From Candidatus Omnitrophota bacterium (GTDB lineage Bacteria; Omnitrophota; Gorgyraeia; 2-01-FULL-45-10): DNA of 64,000 bases. The notes beneath the pieces were generated by a model, which had not been told where the DNA came from, searched no databases, and saw only the letters and a list, made by a program, of their open reading frames with translations. Below, piece by piece: positions 2,566-50,455 of this stretch; position 1 is the first letter of the stretch, and each line of letters opens with the position of its first letter. Location of the stretch: positions 156,439-220,438 of the forward strand of contig JBAZKM010000003.1 of assembly GCA_041650805.1 (NCBI GenBank), given 5' to 3'. A program made the translations under genes and the position numbers.

Positions 2566-3876
2566 CTATACGTTTCTTCTCACAAGCTCCAGCGCCGCCT
2601 GCGATGCCTGGAACTTTATCTCTTCGCGCGTTCCCTTGAATCTGAATTCTTTAACGAGAGCTTTCAGCTTTCTGCTTTCAGCTTTCAGCTTTTTACAATC
2701 GTCCATAGCCAAGGCGATATAAACTAAGCCGATGGGTTTCGACTTTGTACCGCCCGTAGGGCCGGCGATGCCCGTGAGAGATAATCCTATATCGGTGCCT
2801 GCGAGCCGCCTCACGCCTTCTGCCATTTCGAGCGCGACCTCGCGCGAAACGGCCCCATATTTCTTGAGGGTAAAGGGAGAGACACCTAGCATATTCACCT
2901 TGGACTCATTCGAATAAGCGATAATACCCATCATGAAATAACCGGAGCTCCCGCTTACGTTAGTAATACGGTGTGAAACGAACCCGCCCGTACAGGATTC
3001 GGCCGTTGCGATCGTCAGCTTCTTACGCTTCAAGGCATTTGCTACGGCGCCTTCGAGCGTATCTTCGTCATATCCGAATATATTACCCCTTAGCCGCGAA
3101 TGGATCTTACCCTCTATCCTTCCTATCACCCGCGCCGCTTCTCTGTCACTATCGGCCTTAGCCATTATCTTCAGGTCGACCTCGCCGAGCTTGGCGTATA
3201 TCCCGACTGTCGTAGGCGGCTTGAGGGAGAGGAGGTCCTTCGCCTTCGCATTGACCTGCGACTCCGCGAGTCCCGTGAGCTTGATCGTACGTGACCTCAG
3301 GGTATAGGGTATAGGGTTTAGGGCATAGTGTTTGAGCAGATAAGGGAGGATTTCGTGTTCCACCATCGGTTCAATTTCGCGCGGCGGCCCCGGGAGCGCG
3401 ATGATCACCTTACCGCGTACTTCCACGATCAATCCAGGCGCGGTGCCGACGCGATTCCGTATACGTTTTGCGCCTTCCGGGATATATGCCTGGCGGATGC
3501 TATCTCGAGGGGCCTTTATCCTGCGTAGTTTGAAGTAGCCGTTCAGGTCTTTCAGGACCGCCCGGTCCAGGATGAGTTCTCTTCCGGTAAGTTTTGCGAT
3601 CGTCTCTATCGTTATGTCATCTACGGTGGGGCCCAGCCCGCCCGAAGTTATTACGACGTCGGACCGGCCGAGCGCCTTCCGGATCGCCTCGGTGAGCCGT
3701 CCCGGATTGTCGCCTACGGTCGTGTGGTGAAATACGTCGATCCCGGCCTCTGCCAGTTTTTGTGAGAGAAAAGCGGCGTTTGTGTTGACGACGTGACCGA
3801 GCAGGAGCTCGGTGCCTATCGCTACGATCTCGGCGGTCATGGGGGTATTATAGCAGGGGCGAGTGACAGCGGTCAA
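2566..3876 (-). CDS. cinA: Competence/damage-inducible protein CinA (N-terminal MoCF-binding domain plus C-terminal CinA/PncC domain).
   Basis: N-terminal AEIVAIGTELLLG...VVITSGGLGPTVDDIT and C-terminal LTIATAESCTGGFVSHRITNVSGSS. Contains two heptamer-repeat-encoded in-frame segments (KLKAESRKLKAL at 2640-2690; NPIPYTL at 3300-3332). Confidence 0.85.
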   Translation of the reverse strand: MTAVTRPCYNTPMTAEIVAIGTELLLGHVVNTNAAFLSQKLAEAGIDVFHHTTVGDNPGRLTEAIRKALGRSDVVITSGGLGPTVDDITIETIAKLTGRELILDRAVLKDLNGYFKLRRIKAPRDSIRQAYIPEGAKRIRNRVGTAPGLIVEVRGKVIIALPGPPREIEPMVEHEILPYLLKHYALNPIPYTLRSRTIKLTGLAESQVNAKAKDLLSLKPPTTVGIYAKLGEVDLKIMAKADSDREAARVIGRIEGKIHSRLRGNIFGYDEDTLEGAVANALKRKKLTIATAESCTGGFVSHRITNVSGSSGYFMMGIIAYSNESKVNMLGVSPFTLKKYGAVSREVALEMAEGVRRLAGTDIGLSLTGIAGPTGGTKSKPIGLVYIALAMDDCKKLKAESRKLKALVKEFRFKGTREEIKFQASQAALELVRRNV

Positions 3877-3922: not shown

Positions 3923-3987
3923 AAAAGTTAAAAAAAAGTGCAATAATATTTGAAATTTTAGCATCTATATAGGTAGAAGGGTAAATG

Positions 3988-4032
3988 GCGACTTAGCTAT
4001 CAGCTTTCAGCTGTCAGCTATCAGCAAAAGAA
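3988..4032. repeat. AGCTNTC heptamer array, forward orientation, on the left flank of the four-helix-bundle gene.
   Basis: tagctatcagctttcagctgtcagctatcagc. Confidence 0.8.
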
Positions 4033-4036
4033 GAAT

Positions 4037-4402
4037 ATGAAAGAGCAGAGATTTAGAAAGCTAGAAGTTTGGATCAAAGCAATGGATTTTGTTGAGATGA
4101 TTTATAAGATCACAAACAATTTTCCGCTAAGGGAGACGTATGGTCTTACAAGCCAATTGAGGCGAGCAACGCTATCTATAGCTCTGAATATTGCCGAAGG
4201 AAGCGGCTCTTCTTCCGATAGAGAATTTAGTAGATTCTTGAATATATCTTTGAGGTCATCTTATGAAGTTATGTGCGGCATCGAAGTGGTAAGGCGACTT
4301 AAGTATTGCGATGACAATGCAATAAGCATTTTATCGGACAGATGTGATGAGATATCGGCAATGTTGACCGGTTTAAAGAGAAAGCTGAAAGCTGACGGCT
4401 GA
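4037..4402 (+). CDS. Four-helix-bundle protein of the 23S rRNA intervening-sequence protein family (the family that includes DGR accessory protein Avd).
   Basis: 121 aa with the family signature ...ATLSIALNIAEGSGSSS...FLNISLRSSYEV. The C-terminus KRKLKADG is encoded by the heptamer repeat. Confidence 0.7.
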   Translation: MKEQRFRKLEVWIKAMDFVEMIYKITNNFPLRETYGLTSQLRRATLSIALNIAEGSGSSSDREFSRFLNISLRSSYEVMCGIEVVRRLKYCDDNAISILSDRCDEISAMLTGLKRKLKADG

Positions 4403-4420
4403 TAGCTGAAAGCTGAGGCC
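4383..4420. repeat. AGCTNTC heptamer array in reverse-complement orientation (right flank of the four-helix-bundle gene), forming an inverted pair with 3988-4032.
   Basis: agctgaaagctgacggctgatagctgaaagctgag. Confidence 0.8.
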
Positions 4421-4430
4421 CGAAAACGCT

Positions 4431-4459
4431 TTACAAGAAGGAGGTGACGCAGGTATAAT
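4431..4459 (+). promoter_or_regulatory. Sigma70-like promoter upstream of recA.
   Basis: TTACAA (4431-4436), a 17-nt spacer, and a perfect TATAAT (4454-4459). The AGGAG RBS lies 13 nt before the ATG at 4534. Confidence 0.5.
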
Positions 4460-4533
4460 ATATGCTCTATATTATGTTATATAAAGAACGGTGTAATTGA
4501 TCTGATCTGACTCAAAAAAAGGAGAGTTGAGCA

Positions 4534-5586
4534 ATGACTAAGACAAAGGTAAAGGAAGTTAAGGAGAGGGAACCGATAAGGGAAGATGCTAAGGATATAA
4601 GCCAGGAAGAGAAGACGAAGGCGCTGGACCTGGCTCTCGGGCAGATAGAGAAGCACTTCGGGAAGGGCGCCATAATGCGTCTCGGGCAGGACTTCAAGGT
4701 CGATGTCCCGGCCATCCCCACGGGTTCCATCGCCATAGACGTGGCGCTCGGCGTAGGCGGGGTCCCGCGCGGCAGGGTCGTGGAGATATTCGGGCCCGAG
4801 TCGAGCGGCAAGACGACGCTGACTTTGAGCATCATCGCGAATGCCCAGAAGGCAGGGGGGCAGGCGGCATTCATAGACGCGGAGCATGCGTTCGACCCGG
4901 CGTACGCAAAGAAGATAGGCGTGAACCTGGATAACCTTCTCATGTCACAGCCGGACACGGGCGAGCAGGCGCTCGAGATCACCGAGACGCTGGTGAAGTC
5001 GAACGCGATAGATGTCGTAGTTGTCGATTCTGTCGCGGCGCTGACGCCGAAGGCGGAGATAGAGGGCGATATGGGCGAATCGCACATGGGACTGCAGGCG
5101 AGGCTGATGAGCCAGGCGCTCAGGAAGCTCTCAGGGTCGATCTCCAAGTCGAAGACCTGCGTCATATTCATCAACCAGATAAGGGAGAAGATCGGCATCA
5201 TGTTCGGCAACCCCGAGACGACGCCCGGCGGCCGGGCGCTCAAATTCTACGCCTCGGTCAGGATAGACCTGCGGCGTATAGCGTCTCTGAAGAAAGGCGA
5301 TGATGCCGTCGGTAACAGGGTCCGCGCCTCTATCGTTAAGAACAAAGTAGCGCCGCCGTTCCGGAAGGCGGAGTTCGATATTATGTTCGACGAGGGGATC
5401 TCCAGGGCCGGCAGTGTGATAGATGTGGCGGAGACGCTCGGCATATTGACGAAGAGCGGTTCGTGGCTCATATACGGCGAAGAGAAGATAGGGCAGGGCA
5501 AGGAGAACGCGAGGACCTATCTCAGGGAGAACCCGAAGGTCCTGGCGAAGCTCGAGAAGGAGATCAGGGAGAAGGCGCTGAAATAA
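4534..5586 (+). CDS. recA: Recombinase RecA.
   Basis: Walker [24 protein letters not shown], and full-length colinearity (350 aa). Confidence 0.97.
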
Positions 5587-5594
5587 AGGTCAAG

Positions 5595-6065
5595 TTGGAA
5601 GAAGATAAGAAGAAGACGTTAGCGAAGAATAGCGCGTACCGGCTCCTGCGGGTGAGGCCGAGGAGCGAGGCGGAACTGCGCGGCCGTTTGAAAGAGAAGG
5701 GTTACGACGGCGTCACCATAGACGGGGCCGTAGAAGACCTCAGGACCAAGGGTTACGTAGACGACGAAAAATTTGCGCGGTTCTGGGTAGAGTCGCGCAT
5801 GCACCTCAACCCGGTCGGCGACGTGGTGCTGAAGCACGAGCTTAGGCGGAAGGGCATAAGCGATGCCGTCATAGACGCCGCCCTCGAGACGAAGGCAAAG
5901 GCCTATAACGAGTACGAGATCGCCCTCAGCATGGCGCGCGACAGGTTCGAGCGCCTGAAGAAACTCGACCGGCGCAAGGCGACGAAGCGCCTTTACGACT
6001 TCATGTTGCGCCGGGGCTTTGCGTACGAGACGGTGAGAAGAGTAATAGAAGAGTTAGCGAAGTAG
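5595..6065 (+). CDS. recX: Regulatory protein RecX.
   Basis: RecX-like helical repeats (AYRLLRVRPRSEAELRGRLKEKGY...) immediately downstream of recA. The start is uncertain (TTG 5595 chosen); the long ORF 5463..6065 overlaps the recA 3' end. Confidence 0.75.
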   Translation: MEEDKKKTLAKNSAYRLLRVRPRSEAELRGRLKEKGYDGVTIDGAVEDLRTKGYVDDEKFARFWVESRMHLNPVGDVVLKHELRRKGISDAVIDAALETKAKAYNEYEIALSMARDRFERLKKLDRRKATKRLYDFMLRRGFAYETVRRVIEELAK

Positions 6066-6069
6066 GTAT

Positions 6070-8658
6070 ATGAAGACCGACGATATACGAAGCTTATTTC
6101 TGGAGTTTTTCCGCGCCAAGGGGCACGAGATAGTGCCGAGTGATTTGCTCGTCCCGAAAGATGACCCGACGCTCCTCTTTACCGGCGCGGGGATGAACCA
6201 GTTCAAGGAGAAGTTCCTGGGCCGGAACGTCACGTACAGGCGCGCGGCATCGAGCCAGAAATGCCTGAGGACCGGCGACCTTGAGAACGTCGGAAAGACG
6301 TCGGGCCACCACACGTTCTTTGAGATGCTCGGCAACTTTTCGTTCGGGGACTATTTCAAGAAAGAGGCGATCTCCTGGGCGTGGGAGTTCATGACTGAGG
6401 AGCTGAAGATACCGGAAGGCCGGCTCCGGGCGTCGGTATATAAAGACGACGCCGAGGCATACGCCATCTGGAGGGACGTCATAAAGATGCCGGAGCGGAA
6501 GATAATAAAGTTCGGCGAAAAGGAGAACTTCTGGCCTTCCGAGGCGCCGACGAAAGGGCCCAACGGGCCGTGCGGGCCGTGTTCCGAGATATTCTACGAC
6601 TACGGCGATGACGTGGGGTGCAAAAAGCCGGGCTGTACGCCTGCGTGCGACTGCGGGAGGTTCATAGAAGTATGGAACCTCGTATTTACCCAGTTCGACA
6701 GGCGACCGGATGGAAAGCTTGAACCGCTCCCGAACAAGAATATCGATACCGGCATGGGGTTGGAGCGCCTGGCGTCGGTGATGCAGGGAGTGAAGACGAA
6801 CTTTGAGATAGACATCTTTGTGCCGATCGTTAAAGAGATAATCAAGGGTATAGGGTTTAGGGTATCGGGTATAGAAAAAGCTAGACCCGAATCCCCATAC
6901 CCCATACCCTATACCCTATACCCTAAGTTGAACGCCATCGCCGATCACATACGTGCGGTGGCATTCATGATCGCAGACGGCGTGATGCCGTCCAATGAAG
7001 AGCGCGGTTATGTGGCGCGCAAGCTCATCAGGCGGTCGCTTAACCACGCGATGGACCTGGAGATAAAAGTGCCTTTCCTTTACAAGCTCGTGAGCACCGT
7101 TTGCGAGGTGATGAAGATGCAGTACCCGGAGCTTTTGGAGAGAAGGGATGACATAGCTCAGGTCGTGAAGCGCGAGGAGGAGAACTTCCTCGTTGTGCTT
7201 GATACGCAGATACCTAAGGTGGAAGAAGCGTTTGAGAAATTTAAAGGTCATCAGGAATTGGCGGAGACGGCGTTCAATTTTTATGATACATACGGAATGC
7301 CGTATGACATGCTTGAGGAGATCGCCGAAAAATTTAAGTTAAAAATAGACAGGGCCGTCTTTGATAAACTTTTGGACAGGCAACGGACGCTTTCTCGCTC
7401 TAAGAGCAAGATAAAGGGCGAGATATTCTCCGAGACCTTCGCGAAGAAGGTGGAGTCGCTCGGTCTCAGGACAGAGTTTCTCGGTTATGAGAAGGCGAAG
7501 CTTGATGCGAAGGTCGCGGCGGTCCTCGAGGGCGGGGAAGTGATACTCGAGAGGACACCGTTCTACGGAGAATCGGGCGGACAGGCGGGTGACTGGGGCA
7601 CGATCGAGACGCCGTCCGGAAAGATGGAAGTGAAAGACGCGAAGAAGATAGGCGATACGATCGTCCATATAGGCATTATGGTCAAAGGAAGGATCGTCAA
7701 GGGCGAGACGGCCAGGGTCGCCATAGATGAAGAGGTGCGCCGCAGGGTGATGCGTAACCATACGGCGACCCATCTACTGCAGGCGGCCCTCCGCAGGGTG
7801 CTCGGTGAACATGTCCACCAGACGGGTTCCCTGGTGGATGCCGAACACCTGAGGTTCGATTTCACCCACATGAAGAAGATGGAGCCCCGCGAGATCGCCC
7901 GTGTCGAGGAGATAGTGAATGAGGCGATAAAGAAGGGCGTGGCTGTCGCAAAGGATATAAAAGATATAGATGATGCCAAGCAGAGCGGCGCCATAGCGCT
8001 CTTCGGCGAGAAGTACGGATCGAAGGTCCGCGTGATCTCGGTCGGGGACATATCCAGGGAGTTCTGCGGCGGGACACACGTCGATAACACAAAGGATATA
8101 GAGCTCTTCAGGATCACCGGCGAGAGCTCGATCGCATCCGGGGTCCGGCGTATCGAGGCGGTAACTGCGGACGCGGCCAGGAAATGGGCGGCGGACGAGA
8201 TCGAGGCCAGGGACGCAAAGCTCAAAGACGAGAAGCGCAAGGAAAAGGAGAAGACGGCAAAGGCCTCGCTCCTCAAGTCGGAATTGGAGAAGGTCGACTC
8301 ATATATAGCTAAAGGCATAGATGCGGGCGGCACCAGGGTCATAGCGGAGATAGTCCCGGGCGGCGTTATGGATATACTGCGCGCGCTGAGCGACGCCATA
8401 AAGTCGAAGGAGAGGTCCGCTGTCATAGTCCTGGCGTCTAAAGATAACGATAAAGTGTCGTTCGTGGTCTCGCTCACAAAGGACATCTTAGGCAGGAAGA
8501 CCCTTACGGCCAATGATATAGCGAAAGATATGGCGAAGTACTTAAGCGGCTCCGGCGGCGGAAGGCCGGATTTCGCTCAGGGCGGCGGAAAAGATCCGTC
8601 GAAACTTGACGAGGCGTTACGGAAAACGTTTGAACTGGTCAAAGAGAGGCTAAGATGA
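6070..8658 (+). CDS. alaS: Alanine--tRNA ligase.
   Basis: 862 aa with class II AlaRS core motifs, editing-domain HxxxH (HTATHLL), and C-terminal DHHA1-like GGGRPDFAQGGG. Carries a palindromic in-frame repeat insertion at 6841-6927. Confidence 0.95.
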   Translation: MKTDDIRSLFLEFFRAKGHEIVPSDLLVPKDDPTLLFTGAGMNQFKEKFLGRNVTYRRAASSQKCLRTGDLENVGKTSGHHTFFEMLGNFSFGDYFKKEAISWAWEFMTEELKIPEGRLRASVYKDDAEAYAIWRDVIKMPERKIIKFGEKENFWPSEAPTKGPNGPCGPCSEIFYDYGDDVGCKKPGCTPACDCGRFIEVWNLVFTQFDRRPDGKLEPLPNKNIDTGMGLERLASVMQGVKTNFEIDIFVPIVKEIIKGIGFRVSGIEKARPESPYPIPYTLYPKLNAIADHIRAVAFMIADGVMPSNEERGYVARKLIRRSLNHAMDLEIKVPFLYKLVSTVCEVMKMQYPELLERRDDIAQVVKREEENFLVVLDTQIPKVEEAFEKFKGHQELAETAFNFYDTYGMPYDMLEEIAEKFKLKIDRAVFDKLLDRQRTLSRSKSKIKGEIFSETFAKKVESLGLRTEFLGYEKAKLDAKVAAVLEGGEVILERTPFYGESGGQAGDWGTIETPSGKMEVKDAKKIGDTIVHIGIMVKGRIVKGETARVAIDEEVRRRVMRNHTATHLLQAALRRVLGEHVHQTGSLVDAEHLRFDFTHMKKMEPREIARVEEIVNEAIKKGVAVAKDIKDIDDAKQSGAIALFGEKYGSKVRVISVGDISREFCGGTHVDNTKDIELFRITGESSIASGVRRIEAVTADAARKWAADEIEARDAKLKDEKRKEKEKTAKASLLKSELEKVDSYIAKGIDAGGTRVIAEIVPGGVMDILRALSDAIKSKERSAVIVLASKDNDKVSFVVSLTKDILGRKTLTANDIAKDMAKYLSGSGGGRPDFAQGGGKDPSKLDEALRKTFELVKERLR
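6841..6927. repeat. Palindromic CCCTATA/GGGTATA heptamer-array insertion inside the alaS coding sequence.
   Basis: gggtatagggtttagggtatcgggtatag + 18-nt spacer + ccccataccccataccctataccctataccc; encodes KGIGFRVSGIEKARPESPYPIPYTLYP. Confidence 0.85.
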
Positions 8659-27234: not shown

Positions 27235-27264
27235 AGGATGGGGAGATACGAAGAAAGGAAAAAG

Positions 27265-27843
27265 ATGGAACCAAAAGTCAAGTCCCAGGTCAGGGAGTGG
27301 ACGGAGTCGATAATAATAGCCGTTGTGCTTGCCCTCATAATAAGGACGTTCCTTATACAGGCGTTCAAGATACCGTCGGGCTCGATGATACCCACCCTGG
27401 AGGTCGGTGACAGGATATTCGTCAGCAAGGTAGTGTACGGGCCTAAGATACCGTTCACCGACATGCGGATCCCCGGTTTCGCGAAGCCGGCCCGCGGCGA
27501 TATCATCGTCTTCGTCTCGCCGGAAGCCCCGAAAAAGGATTTTGTCAAACGGCTCATCGCGCTATCGGGCGAGAAGGTGGAGATAAAGGATAGCATGATA
27601 TATATCGACGGAAATCCCGTAAAGAGCCCGCCGTCGCTGGCGGCGGTTTCGTACTATAACAGGGGCGATTACGGCAAAGAGGGTGACAGGATAGAGGTGC
27701 CGGAAGATTCATATTATGTCCTGGGGGACAATAGCGCAAGTTCCCGCGACTCGCGGTACTGGGGGTTCGTCCCCGCAAAGAATGTCATAGGGAAGGCGGT
27801 CTGTATCTACTGGCCCCTTAACCGGATAAGGATACTGAGATGA
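27265..27843 (+). CDS. lepB: Signal peptidase I.
   Basis: IPSGSMIPTLEVGDRIFVSK (Ser box), GDNSASSRDSRYWGFV. The ATG 27265 is preceded by an AGGAAA RBS; the alternative ATG 27238 sits inside the hairpin. Confidence 0.88.
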   Translation: MEPKVKSQVREWTESIIIAVVLALIIRTFLIQAFKIPSGSMIPTLEVGDRIFVSKVVYGPKIPFTDMRIPGFAKPARGDIIVFVSPEAPKKDFVKRLIALSGEKVEIKDSMIYIDGNPVKSPPSLAAVSYYNRGDYGKEGDRIEVPEDSYYVLGDNSASSRDSRYWGFVPAKNVIGKAVCIYWPLNRIRILR

Positions 27844-29095: not shown

Positions 29096-29123
29096 TTGAC
29101 ATATATAAATTAGGTGATATACT
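29096..29123 (+). promoter_or_regulatory. Strong sigma70-like promoter with extended -10, upstream of the giant gene.
   Basis: TTGACA (29096-29101), 16-nt spacer, TGaTATACT (29115-29123), inside an AT-rich 120-nt intergenic region. Confidence 0.5.
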
Positions 29124-29170: not shown

Positions 29171-29275
29171 ATGTTTATCACACTGAAACAATCTAATAAT
29201 ATCGCAAGGCGACTGGTATCGGTAATACTGATCGCCTCTTTTCTATTTACCAATTCCGATCTCTCTTTGGCCCGG
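29171..29275 (+). other. N-terminal signal peptide / membrane anchor of the giant protein.
   Basis: MFITLKQSNNIARRLVSVILIASFLFTNSDLSLAREIF: positively charged n-region, a 15-aa hydrophobic core, and an A-x-A-like site. Confidence 0.6.
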
Positions 29276-32200
29276 GAGATATTCTCTGACCGTACAACCC
29301 TCTCGCCGGCCTCCCGCTTCAACCCGCTCGCTAAGATAAGAGAGAAGGATGACGGCACGTTCGATATTGTCCGGGATGAGGAAGGGCGAAGAGACCTCAA
29401 GGATGGATTCAAGGCCGATGCCGAATTCCTGTATCTATCCCGACTGATAGGCGATGCCCTGGGCGATGCGGTCCGTATGAAATTGACCTACGAAGGATTG
29501 CGTATCCTGATAGAGAGGGACCTGCGCGACACGAAGACCGAATTCGAGCATTTTGATCCCGCCAGGCTATACAGAAGAGACGATTCCTATTATCTCCCGT
29601 ACAAAAGCGCCCTTACCGGCGGCGATCTGCTGCTGCGGTACTTTGTTAGCTCCACCGGCCATAAATTCCCTGACGCCGTAAAGGTCGCCGACCTCGGTGA
29701 GGGGGATTTTGTCTGGATGGAGACGATATCTGCGGATGGCATAGAGGCCTCGGCGCCAAATGCCGTGCTTCTAAAAAGGCCGGTCGATATCATAGATCCC
29801 GGGGAGATAAAGACGGGAAGGGATCTGGTCCGTATCATAGATGAGGTCCTGAGGGCGCCGCATCCCGCAGAGGCGCTTCAAGCCGCCTGCCATTCGCTGG
29901 CCATAACCGGTCACGCTATACTTGCCGGATACGAAGAGTATCTTAATGACGAAGGCCTTGGCGTAAAGAATGCCTTTTCGGATATGCTCAGGAAGGTTGA
30001 GTCGGGAAAGCTCGTTTGGACCAAAGACGATTTCGGCGAATTCAAGAAGCTGGTGAAAAAGATACCCACCATAGATGATCCCAACGAAGACCTGTTTGTG
30101 GATGTCCTGACAGATTTTACCCCGGACATGATACGGTTATTGGCAAATAGCGGCTACGATCACAGTTTTAACCTCCAGCTCACAAAGGGGTGCGGTAACC
30201 AGTGCCTAATATGCGGTGTCTCCAAGGCGCGCGGCGCGATGCACCACATACCATTCCCCATAGCGGCGAAACTGCTTCGTAAAGTCAACAGGTACCAGTC
30301 TAAGCTGATGCCGTATTTTGACAGCGATGCGCTCCATTATCGCGACAGTGTAGTAAACGCCACATATGCGGATATAGTCAGTTTTGCCAGGAGATCCGGT
30401 TTCACATGGGTCCCTACGGTTACTCACGGCATAGGCGGGGCAAAGGCAAAAGGATCCGGCGACATCGTCAGGGAGGCGCGCAATTATCTTACCATAAGCG
30501 TTCATGTTTATCATCATCCGGTGATGGAGTACGTAAAATCGAAATTGGAAGGGAAGATGACCGATGAGGCCCTGGCCAAGAGGAGAGAGTCCATCATAAA
30601 CATGTACGCGGATAGATTTGTCTATCTTATACAGGGGGCGATCGATTCAGGAAAAGGGTTCCAGATAAGGTTATTCCGGCCGAATCCCGACGTCGAGTAT
30701 ATGCTTCAACGCCACCTGTACGCATATGCTGCCGTAAAGGAGATCCAGGCTATACAGGATGAAGTATGGAGCCGTGTAAAAGGACGTATACCTTTGGACA
30801 TGGATAGGACCAGTGATACCCACGTTGTCTGGATCGATGACGCCGCCCGTTTCCTGAAAGATCTTGGAGTGCCGGAGGATATCATAGCGAATACTCAAAA
30901 GGCATATGACGATAACATTTATAACGGCGCAAGCATAGTAGGGGATCACTATTCCCTCATAGCGGGGCCTGATGGCTCAGTCACCATGCAGGTCAGAGAA
31001 GGGAATAACCTGCGATTCAGGACGGTGGGTGAGATGTTTGAAGGGCCCGCTTCCGAAGGGTTTGGATCGTTTGTACAGGCGCTCAAGATCATATCGTCCT
31101 TCGATTACGATAATCCTAAGTCATCGAGAAATTCGTATGTATCTTCCGCTAAGATGAAAGATATCGGCACGGATATCGAGGGCCTTATCCTGAGAGAGTT
31201 GAGGAAGGAGATCGCCCGTAACCCTTATTCAGACGAAGAGGTGGCTGAAAAAGTTAAAGAGATAACCGTTTACCGGACGATGGGGGATTTTTATAAGCTC
31301 TTATTTAGCTTTTACCTAAACCAGGACGAGATAAGGCGGCTATCGCATGATCCGACAGAAGGGGGTGCCGCCTTGCTGTATCAGCGCCTTAAGGATGTCC
31401 CATTCCCCGTGAAGATGGAGTTCAATATTGTGATGCAGGATAACGAATTATGCGTCTTCAGTTATTCCCCCATGGACGCAGGCAGGCCGGGATTCGAAAA
31501 GGACCTTTACAATTCTACACGTCGTTTCGAACTTCCGGTCCGCGCGTTTGCCTCACGGTCTGAAGCTGCGCAAAGGCCGCCGTTCCCGGGCCACGGTCCG
31601 GGCTCGCCGCACATTACTCAGGGACCGGATGAGCCGGCACCGCTGATCTCCCGGGTAGATGAGCTCTGGGGCGACAGGCCCGTCAGGGTGCGAAAGATCA
31701 TAGCCGCTATACTGGGAGATATGAGAGGTCCTTTGACCGCGATCTCTGTAAGACAGGCAGCGGGCAATATCCTCCGCGATAACCTGATGAATGCCAAGGC
31801 CCGTCAGGGTGCCGTAGATGCGATAACATTCCGCAAATGGATCTCGAGAACCGGCCTTATTTCGGACCTTCTTGCTCCGGCAGATATCGGGGAATCGGAC
31901 GTAGCCGAGATATTTCTGCGTCACGGTCTGAAATTCGACAGGGACCTGCGGCGCAGGCTTTGCGGGCCGTTCCGCGATGAGATATCGCTTATAAAAAAGG
32001 CGATGAACGCTCTTCAGGAAGCTTATGACCCGCTACTTTCGGATACGTCTCCGGACGAAAGGTCCAAACAGGAATTTGAGGAAAAATATGAATTCAGGGC
32101 ATATGAAAAAGGCACTTCATTTGTGCCTGTTCTGGGTATCCTGTGGGCGGTGAGAGACCAGGATGTCGTATCAATATCCTACCGCATCGCAAACCGGATA

Positions 32201-50200: not shown

Positions 50201-50455
50201 GGCAGTGCCTTCCTCGCCGGTGTCGATACCGCTAACTTTACGACGGTTTCATACCGGCCGCAGATAGACCTGCTCGAGATGCTGGCTGTGGCGATAGCGC
50301 TCTCTTCCGATAAAGAGCTCATGACCGACTCCGAGATAGAGAAGCGCCTCGGTTTCAGGCGCATCAATAAGCGCATGATCGTCTACCTGCCCGAAGCACA
50401 CCCCATAAACACCGAAGAATACCGCTTCCAGCTGGTTGCTCTCCAAAATGCATAA
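29171..50455 (+). CDS. Giant 7,094-aa multi-domain protein. Order: N-terminal signal/anchor, radical-SAM motif, GNAT, SAM-MTase, wHTH + degenerate Fic/Doc, kinase-like, HD, zincin-like peptidase, ~35x 31-residue repeats, AT-rich module, Rossmann-like region, and a conserved C-terminal domain.
   Basis: Single uninterrupted 21,285-nt ORF in GC-rich DNA. Domain motifs are listed as separate features. Recurring linker motifs delimit the modules. Confidence 0.9.
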   Translation: MFITLKQSNNIARRLVSVILIASFLFTNSDLSLAREIFSDRTTLSPASRFNPLAKIREKDDGTFDIVRDEEGRRDLKDGFKADAEFLYLSRLIGDALGDAVRMKLTYEGLRILIERDLRDTKTEFEHFDPARLYRRDDSYYLPYKSALTGGDLLLRYFVSSTGHKFPDAVKVADLGEGDFVWMETISADGIEASAPNAVLLKRPVDIIDPGEIKTGRDLVRIIDEVLRAPHPAEALQAACHSLAITGHAILAGYEEYLNDEGLGVKNAFSDMLRKVESGKLVWTKDDFGEFKKLVKKIPTIDDPNEDLFVDVLTDFTPDMIRLLANSGYDHSFNLQLTKGCGNQCLICGVSKARGAMHHIPFPIAAKLLRKVNRYQSKLMPYFDSDALHYRDSVVNATYADIVSFARRSGFTWVPTVTHGIGGAKAKGSGDIVREARNYLTISVHVYHHPVMEYVKSKLEGKMTDEALAKRRESIINMYADRFVYLIQGAIDSGKGFQIRLFRPNPDVEYMLQRHLYAYAAVKEIQAIQDEVWSRVKGRIPLDMDRTSDTHVVWIDDAARFLKDLGVPEDIIANTQKAYDDNIYNGASIVGDHYSLIAGPDGSVTMQVREGNNLRFRTVGEMFEGPASEGFGSFVQALKIISSFDYDNPKSSRNSYVSSAKMKDIGTDIEGLILRELRKEIARNPYSDEEVAEKVKEITVYRTMGDFYKLLFSFYLNQDEIRRLSHDPTEGGAALLYQRLKDVPFPVKMEFNIVMQDNELCVFSYSPMDAGRPGFEKDLYNSTRRFELPVRAFASRSEAAQRPPFPGHGPGSPHITQGPDEPAPLISRVDELWGDRPVRVRKIIAAILGDMRGPLTAISVRQAAGNILRDNLMNAKARQGAVDAITFRKWISRTGLISDLLAPADIGESDVAEIFLRHGLKFDRDLRRRLCGPFRDEISLIKKAMNALQEAYDPLLSDTSPDERSKQEFEEKYEFRAYEKGTSFVPVLGILWAVRDQDVVSISYRIANRIADDYRKARKAGRESIFPLIRNTRIRARLLERTAVDIPLAIHIFNDELDSRERGFFLGLIREYFGGEMVSAVSAVMSGRGMDDAVALAGRDRQFIIFSINFFLKSVFFYKSVDMGQLEKLIPDIPVNMGYEDILTAGIRERFSSIGPGTAWAETPEAGGLIGTFGRVNPETAFVPIGKFWPRDRIAYLTEDNSFALMRRRGGHAGYAGVAVDEEDRELLSEGGAVIPGTSTDGSRFVLIQRMIPVGERKVFAWKLKERGISAYSLPLGFITIERDGRRYRDYYPHLDCCLNVIARDFTEDGRVKILIDPLYYKSVKDDPEFRRLLREQGFLPDDVIIISEEDSGLNLANFAETISGDGRRILIFNAGAASTLSRIPLKAGSYEELPEPLYLLAQSGGLQRCASNLFPREEVPLPGAPSYKVDGTAFPPDVIEAIYRSFSDDGRFSRFLEAFRKCGIEIVQITANRYSDKTEALKTMLPYEAAIYVAPREGTEEVLNEILKGFEVILADLRSNWGGIIIDAGPDGENGIRERPPFPGHGPGTPHIAQGPDEPEDLLSPEPQAPGSKPITDAERLNKLDRKLSYIALGVSVPAFLAMLAGIMMGSDIGVAIVGVSSIIGSAALGTTALLRVKWILEPGERKETGGTTPVRVDITEERSERIEVTIERVPGEESEIHIVAKDPEGKEAGRATYMIRSEDAIQLLSIDVFESKKRRSGIGEQLMLRIKDEMVEAGRSEIFLFCLQSNAGAIRFYDKMGERLGMAMTKEDAIFHDQPPAAYKITYRITNDKRQKTNNGNPARNSGPDTITIKPVPPGTFPDLDARGTPQDRPGDQEKRRAQQQKLAVQLLQKEFARKEALVKYGIYTAAELAVVEGLYRRFAVGEDLSHFSPYEKVFIWQYMILMDMHSSSFRMLEEEVNRLAEDLEIDGLYVGFEWNDHMAPEDKVRTVENNISIRPGMRMLDIGCGKGSVIIELARRHAGVEFIGIDANPRNISNALTRLMEMGPEAPRNVRFHMLDCREPVADKAIPRRGIPYGEGAFDVISLMEGVFDEAHSSDSAERLLWREAIRVAGKDGGIVAFFGLAGKNKFEESLPEGVYAEMKDNTFFSIGGRNTRYYFPSWTREDEPSPYRREKTEFCVWRLALRHGEELPGHQVTMSPVASGLQTETAPGPSQPVQQDLPFETEGTPPPASDPSSGRRTQGNFGPGAMNVDEPLGRTSPLSEHAQETLFTARLHFSGEGFTAEDLLGKVASSGTGRILSDLDELERNGYIEAVGSGKTPGFRLTAEATFALITMEYNLSPIYIGELGRRGVDLPADIDNPDELASHIIEFTKGDARIDAKTTLHMILDLTNLLEWEYVYLQALEMKKAGKNWALIDTVGLEEALDKLRPLVSRRLLEVQDLEVGWIGHGLEAARTPPETDDFQKAASLVNRYVTGGLAAGEEELKEIHSVVSEHLKVFSAGRSRNVRRGEYRAYEDAYRDLTYFPLAEKVPDAMAAVFRLIKVPEFMGLHPVEQAAITFYLIHNIQPFDNGNTRTASLFMDCLLMKNNYPPFVISEYNERRFHEVIKFMRRPEPERFNEGSMTQSEFVNDPMKLLGSPDALAKIRRYAREFTAFLAEETARELVLQPPSPGSQTQGSPGHQVTRSPVRGDEGRLAEEAASASGTPDLSGYEPRWVTGVKEVGSDPAGPYEIFIDHGRNYGNYTDVNEALYNGKRYMAKWVSGHGEREGLIASQARVLNYLKDVLSDADLARISMPEYIQLEDGTRMLLFEKFTAGSTMNDIMESGFLALSNKRASLLRAVREIACAVKALHDVNVYHGDITLKNVWVFEDGRIKLFDFDFATMGTAGLRQRGLNLWFVSPERLERAFGKKEATIDKKAAVTDEVCSIGVIMTAVLTGELLFNHVVTGEKAGRKRPMRYDPRTALNAVGVPGRIVEVAVRALADSKDRFQTVDELIRALDGSETPSEPIGKTSPDAGKETFPKDPEPVSGTPETAALRDAIEAAIPQGIGFYKKRNPGQPDETTRRKIDEQNSLAEPLLTRTIERLRAHYPDIAEMLADLYPRVLPYYIAGMDVNYIQHHATVIDFASEIAVGERLDEKESAILILAALFHDSGNGLTTLSKVTATAVHNMPVTTPGERAAREGVIEQAVAFRKEHMEIGAGIVREIIEPYRARAPDILPGEDVSEIERLVLHHDDLKIPLWQENVDTTWLTAKDDRSLQFLMEADALWMLTPLGIRSDIDKSEGEPLSPSAQASFNVGLFRKWKELYDRAFDAETVNGYGFRDGTLLRSHAAYLIYQRLIEEAANDPENVPGRRTTPGNLGPGAMNIDEPFEARGPGPAPKTADRRPADTDFVEKVLDTQISMHGLQRLFDEGLLDKRIALAWYRALVSKGGLTDKELSDEIDGEMDYMPPDELYGALKDRGLNPKNRIVAIEADRVLKGYFDHLRREHGIVLPYGYLSIEDNVVFMPKRKLKRYYDAPKAVTDSFLHKVIISNEFKGKELLTYLIHEGLHLNAVGFYLQGVGGMRGSHLNEGMAEYLTRDAMEFMGVDGGSGLWRKTTAEWKVKAVRIVESMIRYMGERSTLIRAFFNGGIDTLPIIPMTLAKAVIKEKTQVYYDGNKMPFSAARRVIREKTPKDIPDDEIYILAEHDRNGYMLISRYTAAEGNEKGPGLQIVLSSIGVIPEDAPALLSVEAVTGYRALDMSDSMSLLEFFTALERATRTASESDLFFAAGKWESLKASVTAPTLSRVVLEITPYIERGLSLAMERCKAAKREKDDHLSAEAEFDDTADMDEDELAEHFAEKALNGEMPKGLENIFEPQDDDEGGSASDVTVRTASYWRTTPGNLGPGAMNIDEPFGSHKDGPLSIEEAVKRIEALLEDAPRQRSISTKEAVTNVLMSIARDGEFVFNRKQANRVASVRRFGDKLPLLKFLVTYKIKTEDGDRYVFNGGHVAIISPSSRTNQDAERLIVALKDMGITEGAHLAIITASSRSEDEIKKIVPFLRAHGITANSHIASILKSSRDEAEIGGLVSFLGDLGITEPAHITRILTTSRGRKEIEGMVTMLKGLGIVKGAHISYIVQTSRTEAEVKNLIDFLDGLGIRGGFAVASIVHSAREKDDISAIIETLRAAGITEDAHIAMILMSKRTGDEIAGILAKLKKHKIADGVSCSIILRSSRKEEDIEGIVKALKKCGMKSIHIALVISASRTKDQIEKAIRSLALYEIKNPSHIASILACSRSNKEIRMLVSMLVACGITDGAHIALIASTKRSTSEVRRLTGHLRRSGITHPFHIAAIIQSSRPEQGIMSLIEMLKASGITGGASIAMISGSSRSEAEISSVVSSVRSLGIVNSCNIATVVASSRKEEDIERLIRSFRRAGFEEPAHISLMIHSSRTEGEIAEIIAGLDAINISEHSAVARIIHSSRSKAEIEDLVKLLVENNIEKDGHIARIIGSSRPKVEVRSIIKTLKALGIVKPFDMAFIIQGKRSEDDIKEIISMLRKHGINKGFHIAVAIHCSRPKEGIERLLKTLAGQGITGGLDTALVIRSTRDEKEIPDIIETLKAAGIRKSFYLAEVLASSRTKSEIREIVRTLKALGITDAGSIAIVLKGSRSKKAINEMVPVLKAAGFSDERDLAHILLSGRTLAEINVTVSRLKACGIIKSSHIAHLLRTDRPIEEMERIIASLRDSGIRDASAMTRILMGGRSASEIKGLISELCSVSITTPKNIAVIARSDRSTKEMKELVGILNAAGIRDETAVTRIIACDRSNNEIRSVIPALRSLGITKEFHMAMVISTSRTVEDIKKVVEAARSSGINESFHLALVAGSSRRLSDIEGLFRSLEAEGITDQYHKACVVHSERTNAEISSGIALLKSIGVKAPAKIARLLSTSHSDEEFRSTVTLLEGVGITDINRIISILELRRPPAEVGDAFELLRQAGITDNTMSFPIIKRRSAEEIEGIVSLLKYKGIVNTGEIAIVLRSKRSREEIEITLKMLQRFGISESVPRALIIKSRHTAREIEDLIPALRQAGITRSAQIAGILYGEGSKEEIEEKITQKTLPEKEKAAPAPAEVMAQDMAEEMSAQEETMVAPEPVGVSKGKRVMPTLYKTLQSVGLLPKDAARLPADIEKRYSALSITDSMLFLKFFTIMKRVIAQYADGREEAPDEDVFVVASEAWRNIGAIKAGSDVHAIAQSIKGPAEDALAAAMRAIEKAREETARKNLMEERATEEEDEDVLAEQFAESALRGEVPEDLEEALEEVRGELTEQSSAEVLPEPDSELSMEESDAPSAGRTTPGNLGPGAMNIDEPFEAQGPQPTAQSPELPVPDSGLQARPFADVTVTPVVGEAAGVTLRGLYSIPAIPDETTAQPFFSVIMHERYYKEFTEKVVDFLRALEESMNTPKETREEKSKVLQKKYSLHDAMTKSLHKWAEYTLQNTNADGPLYAPGKGFSLYAIILACNTISDFYPQFTHIKPEEWLCYEIASYGKLPLNEKNRNILIKANGYLERVLADEDRTNQICRDLYGEDYRVINLVLKWLGNIAEITAHPAERNKARNFLTYFIKQLLRENRDILEAFASFVFDRFEKAKKQRSGSEENHGIKIAIVLTGAEHLGQWLRIKSKLLGKEIAFQDLSLTLSMFMHLEYINDAGDSGSYILGQSSKESLKQSLHEIGITPSDTRHLILVDTGFEGSINKYIVYPLKEMGVSEELLLLFRKDERSVNTYGFNQEQGWEGSEKRLRKLAHIIDDGFEASTLSPTQFSDITDKKLASTQRPWFCELIKREIELFAYTTSEGLSATQPDIAEDDLVGAAPLTARPFALFPAAGATAEVSTTPAGGVPQSDVSQTVQQIAPETFSGPIGKASPDAGEDTFPKDSEAVSVANEEQEGLIQLYRRLYPVVFEFADQAGIVTGDKVVVIGTHVDWQCGIACALKGADVISIGLESDEDEREFKAADEVRESIEKNGGQYRIMRPYDYLKVPVPESSIKIIVAQNVIDDPEANSPAIVRKMLRDVQDGGYIAVSFLCDEQIWYTNIKRQAERLGFILQESVFADFTGMSGTSYIFRVIKNAPGLTAQSSQPTAQSPVLQAQGSPVTSHQSPVQERGQTPSALSSASAETLEAKSGISKVMLWRRDSTGEGGVVEAADDEIRETAQEIAAGKYKFTYLITGNILSLGIVEDDKKTHHDKVKKPNIEDRPLKGDKMDGQFLILPWEIERRTYAEWREQYIRFARFLIEQGILASEPLQVALKASGVIPKIFEPDPMPETLGELANMSLSNEIAPSSQLPTPNSILQAPSPNLTLQAQESTVHGPRSTKGAPVVVEDKEYGVTLLDDYYTYLPRETYGLSLLGTKVGISNTRYAVVRLKDTTINVATHHSAGYIFPVMAAKDGLINGDEVLLHIDFARHPDDADLILSPPPLGNDIGEHLAFLGPYKDKGFLGPENYLTALKKAFPDLVPVFLKDEDDGHYSWGGIEWAYQGSVIDFLAQIQDKTGGARFPWLARGKIASIDLDIFRCLKDDTTKTEQLLDAIADVAAPAKLIMIFTSPGYLDKEFAITLAERLVEKIARNLQDLAGNDRDVSVNGEGRGQGSQVLVKDIQKRGQTPSTEEHLTRLDNVYFGAFPYNGDTSYVKNEESHVRVPRSRPGRGDMLVDVNSATIFEYGLIESKIKTSPLKVMVSDETDGKVANCHQGEAILIKTENANDVLGTLFLEECDAIGGRTVIKGEPYLFLYHKNDSFRNKSFSTFVQWLLKMSDSVQDLECCISMRRGLDERCAAEYENFQETIADLSSLYPGVRVHAVRSRQEPGLFGSMVVSKYGVTCRTAKYTGRTRRDDATADWANAEVAMVPFAVGSSPKTQEPVFGAHDAQTPNSQPPTPNLTLQAPNSKLQANWPVRLVDTIKIRAMEAKEEGQKLIVGVGTSWIPGYAEQGEEHNGLNPILSELRNLRALDNIVFVDAPDNELAQELIKKADGSKTDYKNVIVLADNKFVSGELKASTEIEKAALDGFRSLANGSAFLAGVDTANFTTVSYRPQIDLLEMLAVAIALSSDKELMTDSEIEKRLGFRRINKRMIVYLPEAHPINTEEYRFQLVALQNA
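30150..30800 (+). other. Radical-SAM-like region of the giant protein.
   Basis: NLQLTKGCGNQCLICG contains CxxxCxxC (Cys codons at 30191, 30203, 30212). Confidence 0.45.
31573..31637 (+). repeat. Linker motif A, copy 1: RPPFPGHGPGSPHITQGPDEP.
   Basis: Near-identical at nucleotide level to 33790-33852. Confidence 0.85.
33790..33852 (+). repeat. Linker motif A, copy 2: RPPFPGHGPGTPHIAQGPDEP.
   Basis: ccgccgttcccgggccacgg...cagggaccggacgaacc. Confidence 0.85.
34165..34495 (+). other. GNAT N-acetyltransferase domain of the giant protein.
   Basis: Motif A RRSGIGEQLM (R/Q-x-x-G-x-G/A), with the beta-strand pattern IHIVAKD...LLSIDVF before it and AIRFYDKMG after it. Confidence 0.6.
35040..35470 (+). 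other. Class I SAM-dependent methyltransferase domain of the giant protein.
   Basis: Motif I MRMLDIGCGKGSVIIELA; acidic post-I residue in FIGIDAN; motif II-like AFDVISLMEGVF. Confidence 0.6.
35776..35830 (+). repeat. Linker motif B, copy 1 (divergent): RRTQGNFGPGAMNVDEPLGRTSP.
   Basis: Related to the three near-identical copies at 39121, 40712 and 45055. Confidence 0.8.
35870..36900 (+). other. Winged-helix + Fic/Doc (Fido)-like domain with a degenerate active-site motif.
   Basis: ILSDLDELERNGYIEAVGSG (wHTH), then AITFYLIHNIQPFDNGNTRTASLF. The canonical HPFx(D/E)GNGRxxR has H->Q and G->T (nt 36769-36798). Confidence 0.45.
37250..37990 (+). other. Protein-kinase-like (ePK/APH superfamily) domain of the giant protein.
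   Basis: AxK YMAKWV; catalytic-loop-like HGDITLKNVWV; DFG-like KLFDFDFA; SPERLE. Confidence 0.55.
38086..38165 (+). repeat. Linker motif C, copy 1: PIGKTSPDAGKETFPKDPEPVSGTPE.
   Basis: Near-identical to 46738-46815 (PIGKASPDAGEDTFPKDSEAVS). Confidence 0.8.
38380..38800 (+). other. HD-domain phosphohydrolase region of the giant protein.
   Basis: LAALFHDSGNG (H..HD) and LVLHHDDLKIP. Confidence 0.55.
39121..39180 (+). repeat. Linker motif B, copy 2: RRTTPGNLGPGAMNIDEPFEA.
   Basis: ~50-nt near-identity with the copies at 40712 and 45055. Confidence 0.9.
39480..39960 (+). other. Zincin-like metallopeptidase (Peptidase_MA-like) region.
   Basis: HEGLH (39706-39720), with NEGMAEYL 25 residues downstream (HExxH + EGxAEY). 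Confidence 0.45.
40712..40765 (+). repeat. Linker motif B, copy 3: RTTPGNLGPGAMNIDEPFG.
   Basis: actacaccgggcaacctcggccccggcgcgatgaatatcgacgagccgttc. Confidence 0.9.
41030..44340 (+). repeat. Array of ~35 tandem 31-residue repeats (~1,100 aa) within the giant protein.
   Basis: Consensus G-I-T-x-x-x-H-I-A-x-I-L-x-S-S-R-S-x-x-E-I-x-x-L-V-x-x-L-x-x-x. The Arg is invariant in nearly every unit. Positions 3-7 and the three residues before the Arg are hypervariable. Confidence 0.85.
45055..45125 (+). repeat. Linker motif B, copy 4: RTTPGNLGPGAMNIDEPFEAQGPQPTAQSPE.
   Basis: Followed by a heptamer-encoded PELPVPDSGLQA linker. Confidence 0.9.
45290..46610 (+). other. Compositionally distinct AT-rich module inside the giant ORF (probable acquired cassette).
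   Basis: ~1.3 kb of visibly lower GC (A/T-rich codons, K/N/I/Y-rich peptide), bounded upstream by linker B copy 4 and downstream by linker C copy 2. Confidence 0.6.
46738..46815 (+). repeat. Linker motif C, copy 2: PIGKASPDAGEDTFPKDSEAVSVANEE.
   Basis: atcgggaaagcgtctcccgatgcgggcgaagacaccttcccgaaggat. Confidence 0.8.
49840..50455 (+). other. Conserved C-terminal domain of the giant protein, shared with the C-terminus of the ORF at 3..1814.
   Basis: Begins after the heptamer-encoded linker PNLTLQAPNSKLQA; colinear similarity to the ORF1 tail. Confidence 0.5.

Follow-up and report, generated by a model that had tools for sequence, protein, structure and literature searches.

A CxxxCxxC motif in a giant open reading frame

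The window analyzed here is a 64,000-nucleotide stretch from a Candidatus Omnitrophota bacterium (GenBank assembly GCA_041650805.1, contig JBAZKM010000003.1, positions 156,439 to 220,438 of the forward strand). Its subject is one giant open reading frame (ORF) of 7,094 aa, at 29171..50455 on the + strand, which carries a divergent radical S-adenosylmethionine (SAM) domain behind an N-terminus that looks like a Sec signal peptide; all positions below are those of the window, and the features described for the giant gene lie on the + strand. The start codon is the same as in the NCBI annotation, and the product is identical to the database protein MFA5146399.1, 'MAG: GNAT family N-acetyltransferase [Candidatus Omnitrophota bacterium]'. 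This is the single ORF that holds the cysteine motif from which a first-pass annotation, made from the letters of the DNA, had proposed a radical-SAM domain near the N-terminus of a secreted giant protein. The motif-bearing peptide NLQLTKGCGNQCLICG corresponds to aa 334-349 (window frame +2), and the three Cys indeed have the CxxxCxxC spacing: C341-x3-C345-x2-C348, encoded at 30191..30214, falls inside the 30150-30800 region (aa 327-543) to which that annotation had assigned it. The motif is not due to chance. It occurs once in the whole protein, which contains 42 Cys (0.59 %); an analytic count expects 0.0015 occurrences per protein with that many Cys, and random placement of 42 Cys yields the motif in 27 of 20,000 trials. 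All ∼125 relatives that cover the site retain it, in the context h-x-h-Q-h-T-x-G-C-x-N-x-C-x-x-C. It aligns with the cluster motif of the radical-SAM epimerase YydG, and the three residues are the predicted [4Fe-4S] ligands in a loop after β1.

The motif lies in module 1 of the chain (aa 36-800, 29276..31570), which ends at the first conserved linker. A word-indexed search with this module found one relative only, P0001, a protein of 664 aa with 37 % identity over aa ∼204-795 of the giant protein (E = 9e-134) in which the Cys motif and its surroundings are nearly unchanged. An exhaustive HMMER scan with the two-sequence profile against 1.84 billion representatives gave 134 proteins at E ≤ 1e-3 and 30 at E ≤ 1e-30, and 28 full-length domains with 23-45 % identity to the window sequence were aligned (alignment A3); a word-indexed search with these 28 sequences found no relatives. 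In A3 the columns P299, C341, C345, C348, Y390, D392, and S443 are invariant, and F309, P361, A397, T418, G420, L562, and G602 are nearly so. The domain is present in a single copy in the window.

The link from this family to radical SAM runs through the relatives. PF04055, the Pfam model of the superfamily, matches 36 of the 93 relatives of ≤740 aa at E ≤ 0.01 (best 4.1e-10), and no other Pfam family recurs among them; the close relative P0026 matches at 1.3e-5 (25.9 bits), P0046 at 1.3e-5 over profile positions 2-142, and P0017 at 0.0066. NCBIfam models gave, on ten relatives, only motif-level matches to assorted radical-SAM families and no model for the family as such. Searches of PDB sequences with the single sequence and with the two-sequence profile returned noise only. 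With the A3 profile the top match is YydG, followed by SkfB, GDGT-MAS, 4wcx (a biotin/thiamin-synthesis-associated radical-SAM protein), HydG, ThiH, and an entry named 'Radical SAM protein'; radical-SAM enzymes account for 9 of the 15 PDB sequences among the matches listed for this profile (7 different enzymes). The A3-YydG alignment spans 128 profile positions and stays in consistent register; the Cys motif, GGE, SNG, and the β4 Ser all fall within it. Profile homology to radical SAM, as far as these sequence comparisons go, is borderline in strength and consistent in register.

Several of these results count against a radical-SAM assignment. PF04055 does not match aa 1-3700 or the isolated region even at E ≤ 10, and on the N-terminal module NCBIfam offers only MiaB-like-B (E = 0.19 over 27 residues), so that no curated radical-SAM model of either collection is significant on the window sequence itself. 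The PF04055 matches of the relatives mostly fall under the gathering score of 29.5 bits, and the E value of the YydG match is a borderline 0.0045. A zinc-binding motif of generic type, or a chance CxxxCxxC unrelated to radical SAM, would account for the empty Pfam and NCBIfam scans; we find this scarcely credible, as it is contradicted by the invariance of the Cys in A3, by the PDB matches of the A3 profile, and by the predicted fold described below.

Fold and SAM-binding motifs

AlphaFold2 gave an unusable model with two sequences (predicted local distance difference test, pLDDT, 48.9) and a confident one with the 28 sequences of A3 (pLDDT 91.3, predicted template-modeling score 0.88; model m59c1157d2b3d). 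Alignment and model together delimit a conserved family core at aa 287-623 (30029..31039), which consists of an N-terminal helical extension (IPTxxxPNEDLFVDVL), the radical-SAM barrel, and a C-terminal β-hairpin. The barrel, aa 333-585 (30167..30925), is a (βα)6 partial barrel of the radical-SAM type; its six β-α units occupy model residues 47-296, equivalent to aa 333-582, with the helical extension before and the hairpin after them, and the Cys motif sits between strand 333-335 and helix 362-372. In the structural comparison of the model, the values as listed are 11.2 for YydG, 10.4 for SkfB, 10.1 for BlsE, 10.0 for viperin, 9.9 for MgmA, 9.8 for GDGT-MAS, 9.6 for both SuiB and BtrN, 9.3 for MoaA, 9.2 for both QueE and spore photoproduct lyase, and 9.1 for anSME. 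Foldseek against the PDB lists SkfB (2.6e-4), NifB (5.6e-4), and viperin (3.1e-3). The first-pass annotation had held that its proposal would fall if no significant radical-SAM profile hit were found and the fold were not a partial TIM barrel. The first of these holds, and on direct profile matching alone the radical-SAM reading would fail; the second does not, since the predicted fold is the partial barrel expected of the superfamily. The proposal is upheld by remote homology and fold, and not by the direct profile match to which the annotation had looked.

The same annotation had pointed to a downstream GGE-like motif and to a SPASM/twitch domain as features to look for. The canonical GGE is absent, and a putative altered form stands in its place, as read from the consistent register of the YydG alignment. 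At the end of β2, in the stretch PYFDSDALHYRD (30311..30346), D384-S385-D386 align with the SAM-binding GGE of YydG, and D-S-D-A-L with its G-G-E-v-f-L; YydG reads isFtGGEvfLDY here, the family vpYfdSDp.ldYyD, and the window P-Y-F-D-S-D-A-L-H-Y-R-D. The family consensus is x-(S/T)-(D/E)-P-L (F-D-S-D-A-L in the window protein), in which the acidic residue and the Pro of GGEP-L are kept and the two Gly are not. Y390 and D392, which belong to the same stretch, are invariant across the family. In β3, VTHGIGG (30419..30439) corresponds to the SNG/TNG motif of YydG and SPASM-type enzymes, with THG in the family for SNG in YydG and with T418 and G420 nearly invariant. In β4, LTISVHVYHH (30488..30517) contains the invariant S443, aligned to the Ser of tiSyDeyH in YydG (family tiSlhvyH). 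A SPASM/twitch domain is absent; apart from the triad, aa 1-800 contain just two Cys, C240 and C761, the latter not conserved in P0001.

With another sequence in place of GGE, binding of SAM cannot be taken for granted, and this too weighs against a working enzyme. The replacement, the divergence of the domain beyond the reach of PF04055 and NCBIfam, and its position behind a predicted signal peptide would all suit a repurposed or degenerate fold, in which the barrel and the Cys triad are kept for an Fe-S cluster or another metal in structure or sensing while SAM cleavage is lost and the domain serves as an extracytoplasmic binding element or scaffold. We consider this improbable. The acidic residue and Pro of GGEP survive as (S/T)-(D/E)-P-L, and THG and the β4 Ser, which are SAM-contacting positions in relatives, are invariant or nearly so. 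The three Cys, Y390, D392, and S443 are strictly conserved at ∼25-45 % identity, as an active site would be, and the fellow modules of the chain retain catalytic families. From sequence and model we infer that the domain binds a [4Fe-4S] cluster and cleaves SAM.

Judged by its fold, motifs, and homology, the region aa ∼333-585 is a genuine, highly divergent radical-SAM domain, which by sequence and model belongs to the superfamily but neither to the SPASM/twitch subgroup nor to any NCBIfam-defined family. The nearest known system, YydG/EpeE of Bacillus subtilis (PDB 8ai1; PF04055), shares ∼9 % identity with it. Whereas YydG has GGE, the window protein has D-S-D (family S/T-D/E-P), and it lacks an auxiliary-cluster domain; it adds a conserved ∼45-residue N-terminal extension (IPTxxNPNxDLFVDVF...TxEQ), a C-terminal hairpin, and a ∼180-aa tail. 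YydG is a cytoplasmic protein of ∼320 aa encoded beside a precursor-peptide gene, in contrast to a domain within a signal-bearing chain of 7,094 aa. Compared with the SPASM/twitch-type maturases SkfB, CteB, anSME, and SuiB, the domain is without the Cys-rich C-terminal domain, and no RRE-type leader-binding domain was recognized. Its family is an unnamed subfamily whose closest members occur in signal-peptide-bearing, often very long proteins.

Leaders, modules, and genome setting

The N-terminus of the giant protein (aa 1-34, 29171..29272) has, by sequence inspection and hydropathy, the n-h-c layout of a signal peptide, MFITLKQSNNIARR / LVSVILIASFLF / TNSDLSLA|RE: a basic n-region (K6/R13/R14), a 12-residue hydrophobic core, and SLA|RE, where inspection finds the pattern of small residues at −3/−1. 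It looks like a Sec signal peptide, and secretion is predicted. The claim of a secreted giant protein made in the first-pass annotation stands as far as size and signal layout go; secretion itself remains a prediction. The only other strong membrane candidate in 7,094 aa is a pair of adjacent hydrophobic helices at aa 1589-1636 (33935..34078), between module 2 and the GNAT module, which hydropathy marks as probably a membrane hairpin; with such a hairpin, module 1 and the downstream modules are predicted to lie on the same side of the membrane.

The leader has an Arg-Arg pair ahead of its hydrophobic core (...IARRLVSV...), and the twin-arginine translocation (Tat) pathway is the known route for Fe-S proteins; a folded holo-enzyme could on this basis be exported via Tat to act in the periplasm. 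This we take to be very improbable. RRLVSV matches S/T-R-R-x-F-L-K poorly, the core is strongly hydrophobic and Sec-like, a chain of 7,094 aa is far above known Tat cargo, and the closest relatives P0001, P0003, P0005, and P0010 have no RR; the periplasm, moreover, would still lack SAM and reductant.

Leaders recur among the relatives, an independent line of support for secretion. P0001, in which module 1 stands alone behind a short hydrophobic leader, has no other transmembrane segment and is encoded in a row of five consecutive genes (L001 40-9599, Logan SRR22387786 contig) whose products are otherwise unrelated; one neighbor has a HAD domain and one is kinase-like. All five products open with an almost identical leader, MKKLIAIxIxFxFIFxxxGYC, and LRVP (LRP in one) comes within the next ∼10 residues. 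By a crude hydropathy heuristic, a signal-like start is present in 17 of the 24 close relatives whose N-termini are complete, compared with 7 of 61 distant ∼450-aa relatives, which suggests a marked preference of the family for leader-bearing proteins. Post-leader motifs (G-Y/F-A...LR-V/P-P or TLAP/TLSP) were seen in P0044, P0045, P0047, P0049, P0055, and P0056, and the window protein has a similar one, TTLSPASRFNP; this may be an unrecognized sorting signal.

Close relatives often lie within proteins of 1,000-5,000 aa, with the domain in varying position (in one case at aa 3928-4302 of 4,963 aa). Of four other large family members scanned with Pfam, one alone gave matches, to PPDK_N and PEP-utilizers only. 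The genomic context of two distant ∼450-aa relatives gave no functional clue. Two distant relatives, P0053 (1,738 aa) and P0108 (1,706 aa), have two or three copies of the CxxxCxxC domain per chain. An incomplete member of the family that has the Cys motif (LTQGCKNFCAGC) lies at 2589-3083 of L003 (CAZGMX010000283.1, labeled uncultured Actinomycetota), a 3.1-kb contig, downstream of a helicase-like gene; either the family extends beyond Omnitrophota or this short contig is misbinned.

In the giant chain the radical-SAM domain is the first of about a dozen or more enzyme modules. Pfam places GNAT at aa ∼1684, a class-I methyltransferase at ∼1961, Fic at ∼2447, a protein kinase at ∼2767, and HD at ∼3081. 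mTERF-like repeats (Pfam mTERF, E = 1.8e-14) occupy aa ∼3950-5060 (window ∼41000-44350) as ∼30 tandem units of ∼35 residues with the consensus ...GIT..AHIA.I..SSR...EI...V..L...; a sub-threshold PF04055 match of E = 5.3e-6 in this region, with 0 significant stretches, is treated here as a repeat artifact. The remainder of the protein is without Pfam annotation, and PDB sequence searches with aa 823-1539 (module 2), 3340-3840, and 5320-7094 (several modules) gave no matches. By eye, HLDCC and GGLQRC in aa 823-1539 (31637-33787) recall guanidino-group-modifying enzymes, and HEGLH (HExxH) in aa 3340-3840 (39188-40690) recalls zinc metalloproteases; Pfam and PDB searches with both regions were empty. 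G+C is 0.39 in aa 5320-5800 (45128-46570) and 0.43 in aa 5880-6070 (46808-47380), compared with 0.51 for the gene and 0.54 for its flanks, which hints that these two modules are recently acquired cassettes.

Conserved Pro/Gly-rich linkers separate the modules. The first, RPPFPGHGPGSPHITQGPDEP (31574..31636), recurs at aa 1540-1560 (33788-33850), so that RPPFPGHGPGxPHIxQGPDEP is present in two copies, at aa 802 and aa 1540. The linker RTTPGNLGPGAMNIDEPF occurs at aa 3320, 3846, and 5296 (39128-39184, 40706-40762, and 45056-45112), with a diverged fourth copy at aa 2204 (35780-35836), and the shorter peptides PGHQVT, QPTAQSP, RGQTPS, and PNLTLQA also recur. The DNA of the linker copies differs at synonymous positions while the peptides are conserved; it is therefore the peptide, and not the DNA, that is kept and that seems to be under selection. 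This suggests a function, for example as a processing site, and we regard the linkers as candidate processing or docking sites.

The gene begins behind a candidate sigma-70-like promoter, a good match by consensus (TTGACA-16-TATACT, 11/12, with TG; 29096..29123), with the ATG 48 nt downstream. Upstream lie genes for RecA, AlaRS, histidine and tryptophan biosynthesis, phosphoglucomutase, LepA, signal peptidase I, CDP-alcohol phosphatidyltransferase, and PlsY, and downstream those for NusA, IF-2, a class-I tRNA synthetase, and ScpA; the neighbors are ordinary chromosomal housekeeping genes. The signal peptidase I gene (Peptidase_S26, E = 8e-52; 27238-27843) is 1.3 kb upstream on the same strand, with the CDP-alcohol phosphatidyltransferase gene and plsY in between, and its proximity is probably coincidental housekeeping synteny. 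PADLOC models, which include prokaryotic viperins and other anti-phage radical-SAM enzymes, gave no defense-system match. A related locus was recovered in another Omnitrophota metagenome-assembled genome.

Where the domain may act

Radical-SAM enzymes depend on Fe-S assembly, on SAM, and on an electron donor of low potential, and for this reason are seen as strictly cytoplasmic. The first-pass annotation had called a radical-SAM domain on a secreted protein unexpected, such enzymes being oxygen-sensitive and cytoplasmic. It had offered two ways out, a cytoplasmic topology with the N-terminus as membrane anchor or a repurposed motif, and both keep some probability. The puzzle is less singular than it seemed. 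It spans the whole protein, because the GNAT, methyltransferase, Fic, kinase, and HD modules need cytoplasmic cosubstrates as well; acetyl-CoA, SAM, and ATP are absent from the periplasm, which means that the chain as a whole has to work in a cytoplasm. Radical-SAM domains on Omnitrophota giants have, in addition, been described before. Radical_SAM (PF04055) is among the 20 most frequent domains on such proteins (West-Roberts et al. 2023, 10.1101/2023.11.21.568195, Fig. S1 legend), and it occurs 90 times in a catalogue of 916 proteins, 94 % of which have transmembrane helices or signal peptides (10.64898/2026.06.07.730766). Both preprints leave the localization of these domains undecided. The phylum has been described as host-dependent or predatory, with giant signal- and transmembrane-bearing proteins that carry Radical_SAM domains.

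These giants (the 'Archaeovorins' and the members of the long-protein catalogue) come from the same phylum as the protein described here, combine radical SAM with methyltransferase, GNAT, HAD, HD, and kinase-like modules and a signal peptide and/or transmembrane segments, and share its localization puzzle. Our protein differs in size (7,094 aa versus ≥30,000 aa), is without HEAT/GT/TPR content, and has Fic and protein-kinase modules. The reported domains were found by PF04055, which misses the present one. The general phenomenon is already known from these reports, and the divergent subfamily is what is new: it is unnamed, has an altered GGE, carries N- and C-terminal extensions of its own, escapes curated models, and shows a marked preference for leaders.

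Which cytoplasm the chain works in is the question on which interpretations part. We lean, with some reserve, toward an exported multi-effector whose genuine radical-SAM module acts in the cytoplasm of a prey or host cell. This is the most economical reading, and it agrees with the leaders, with a domain set of effector type, and with the proposed lifestyle of Omnitrophota. It has an analogy, and no more than that, in MARTX-type multi-effector toxins and other translocated effectors, which likewise join unrelated enzyme modules that need host-cytoplasm cosubstrates and have conserved linkers that may be processed; unlike them, the present protein showed in the Pfam scan neither RTX repeats nor a cysteine-protease processing domain nor a known secretion signal. 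To our knowledge, no radical-SAM effector has been described.

The opposing view, which we think somewhat unlikely, is that the radical-SAM domain is genuine and there is no export: the N-terminal segment (if it is used at all) and the hairpin at aa 1589-1636 would anchor a protein that faces the producer's own cytoplasm. As every recognizable module requires cytoplasmic cosubstrates, this fits the cofactor needs best, and secretion genes were not found flanking the giant gene in the window. The 2026 preprint places 46 % of long Omnitrophota proteins in a transmembrane-only class, for which it proposes just such a placement, with cytoplasm-facing enzyme content that includes radical SAM (10.64898/2026.06.07.730766), and West-Roberts et al. 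call some extracellular predictions for giant proteins 'highly unlikely' in appearance (they 'seem highly unlikely'; 10.1101/2023.11.21.568195). The N-terminus itself points the other way. The first hydrophobic segment has three basic residues on its N-terminal side and a net acidic C-terminal flank, so that by the positive-inside rule the bulk of the protein should be outside; SLA|R fits a signal peptidase I site; and P0001 and its four neighbors, with their short leaders and no other transmembrane segment, resemble secreted rather than anchored proteins.

Export carries difficulties of its own, which must be set against the reading we prefer. A chain of ∼780 kDa is a hard substrate to export, and a route for [4Fe-4S] insertion after Sec export is a further difficulty. 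No secretion system was found within the 64-kb window, which otherwise holds housekeeping genes, and a literature search for radical-SAM enzymes with a signal peptide or a periplasmic location found no exported one. The signal peptide and the membrane hairpin were assigned by eye and hydropathy only, and the function of the linkers is putative only. An exported effector would be a striking finding, but it depends on predicted topology.

Were the prey- or host-cytoplasm reading correct, the chain would be exported unfolded via Sec and delivered, possibly after linker cleavage, into the prey or host cytoplasm, the habitat being anoxic. The radical-SAM module would pick up its cluster, SAM, and electrons only after arrival in that cell. 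In the catalytic model, C341, C345, and C348 would hold three irons of the [4Fe-4S] cluster, and SAM would bind the fourth, aided by D-S-D-A-L of β2 (in place of GGE-P-L), THG of β3, and Ser443 of β4. Reductive cleavage of SAM would give a 5'-deoxyadenosyl radical, which would abstract hydrogen from the substrate. Our best guess, and a weak one, is that this substrate is a peptide or a protein, because the closest structures, YydG/EpeE and SkfB, modify peptides, and because the domain has no SPASM/twitch domain. A bolder version of the proposal is speculative and, taken as a whole, unlikely: the module would be the first radical-SAM effector, exported in apo form together with the remainder of the chain, released by cleavage at the GPGAMNIDEPF and PGHGPG linkers, and delivered to a prey bacterium or archaeon, where it would modify a protein or peptide of the prey by radical chemistry with hijacked Fe-S assembly, SAM, and ferredoxin or flavodoxin, and the subfamily, with its post-leader 'LRVP/TLAP', would mark an unrecognized repertoire of secreted Omnitrophota effectors.

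Current Pfam and NCBIfam models miss this subfamily, and the protein is annotated only as a 'GNAT family N-acetyltransferase'; the 28 sequences of A3 and the AlphaFold2 model are a ready seed for a new family model. The subfamily occurs both as stand-alone proteins in tandem leader-bearing gene arrays and as modules of giant multi-enzyme proteins. If the export prediction is wrong, the case is a clean one on which to test topology predictions for Omnitrophota giants, which are known to be unreliable. If the prediction is true, radical chemistry would belong to the effector arsenal of a predator or parasite.

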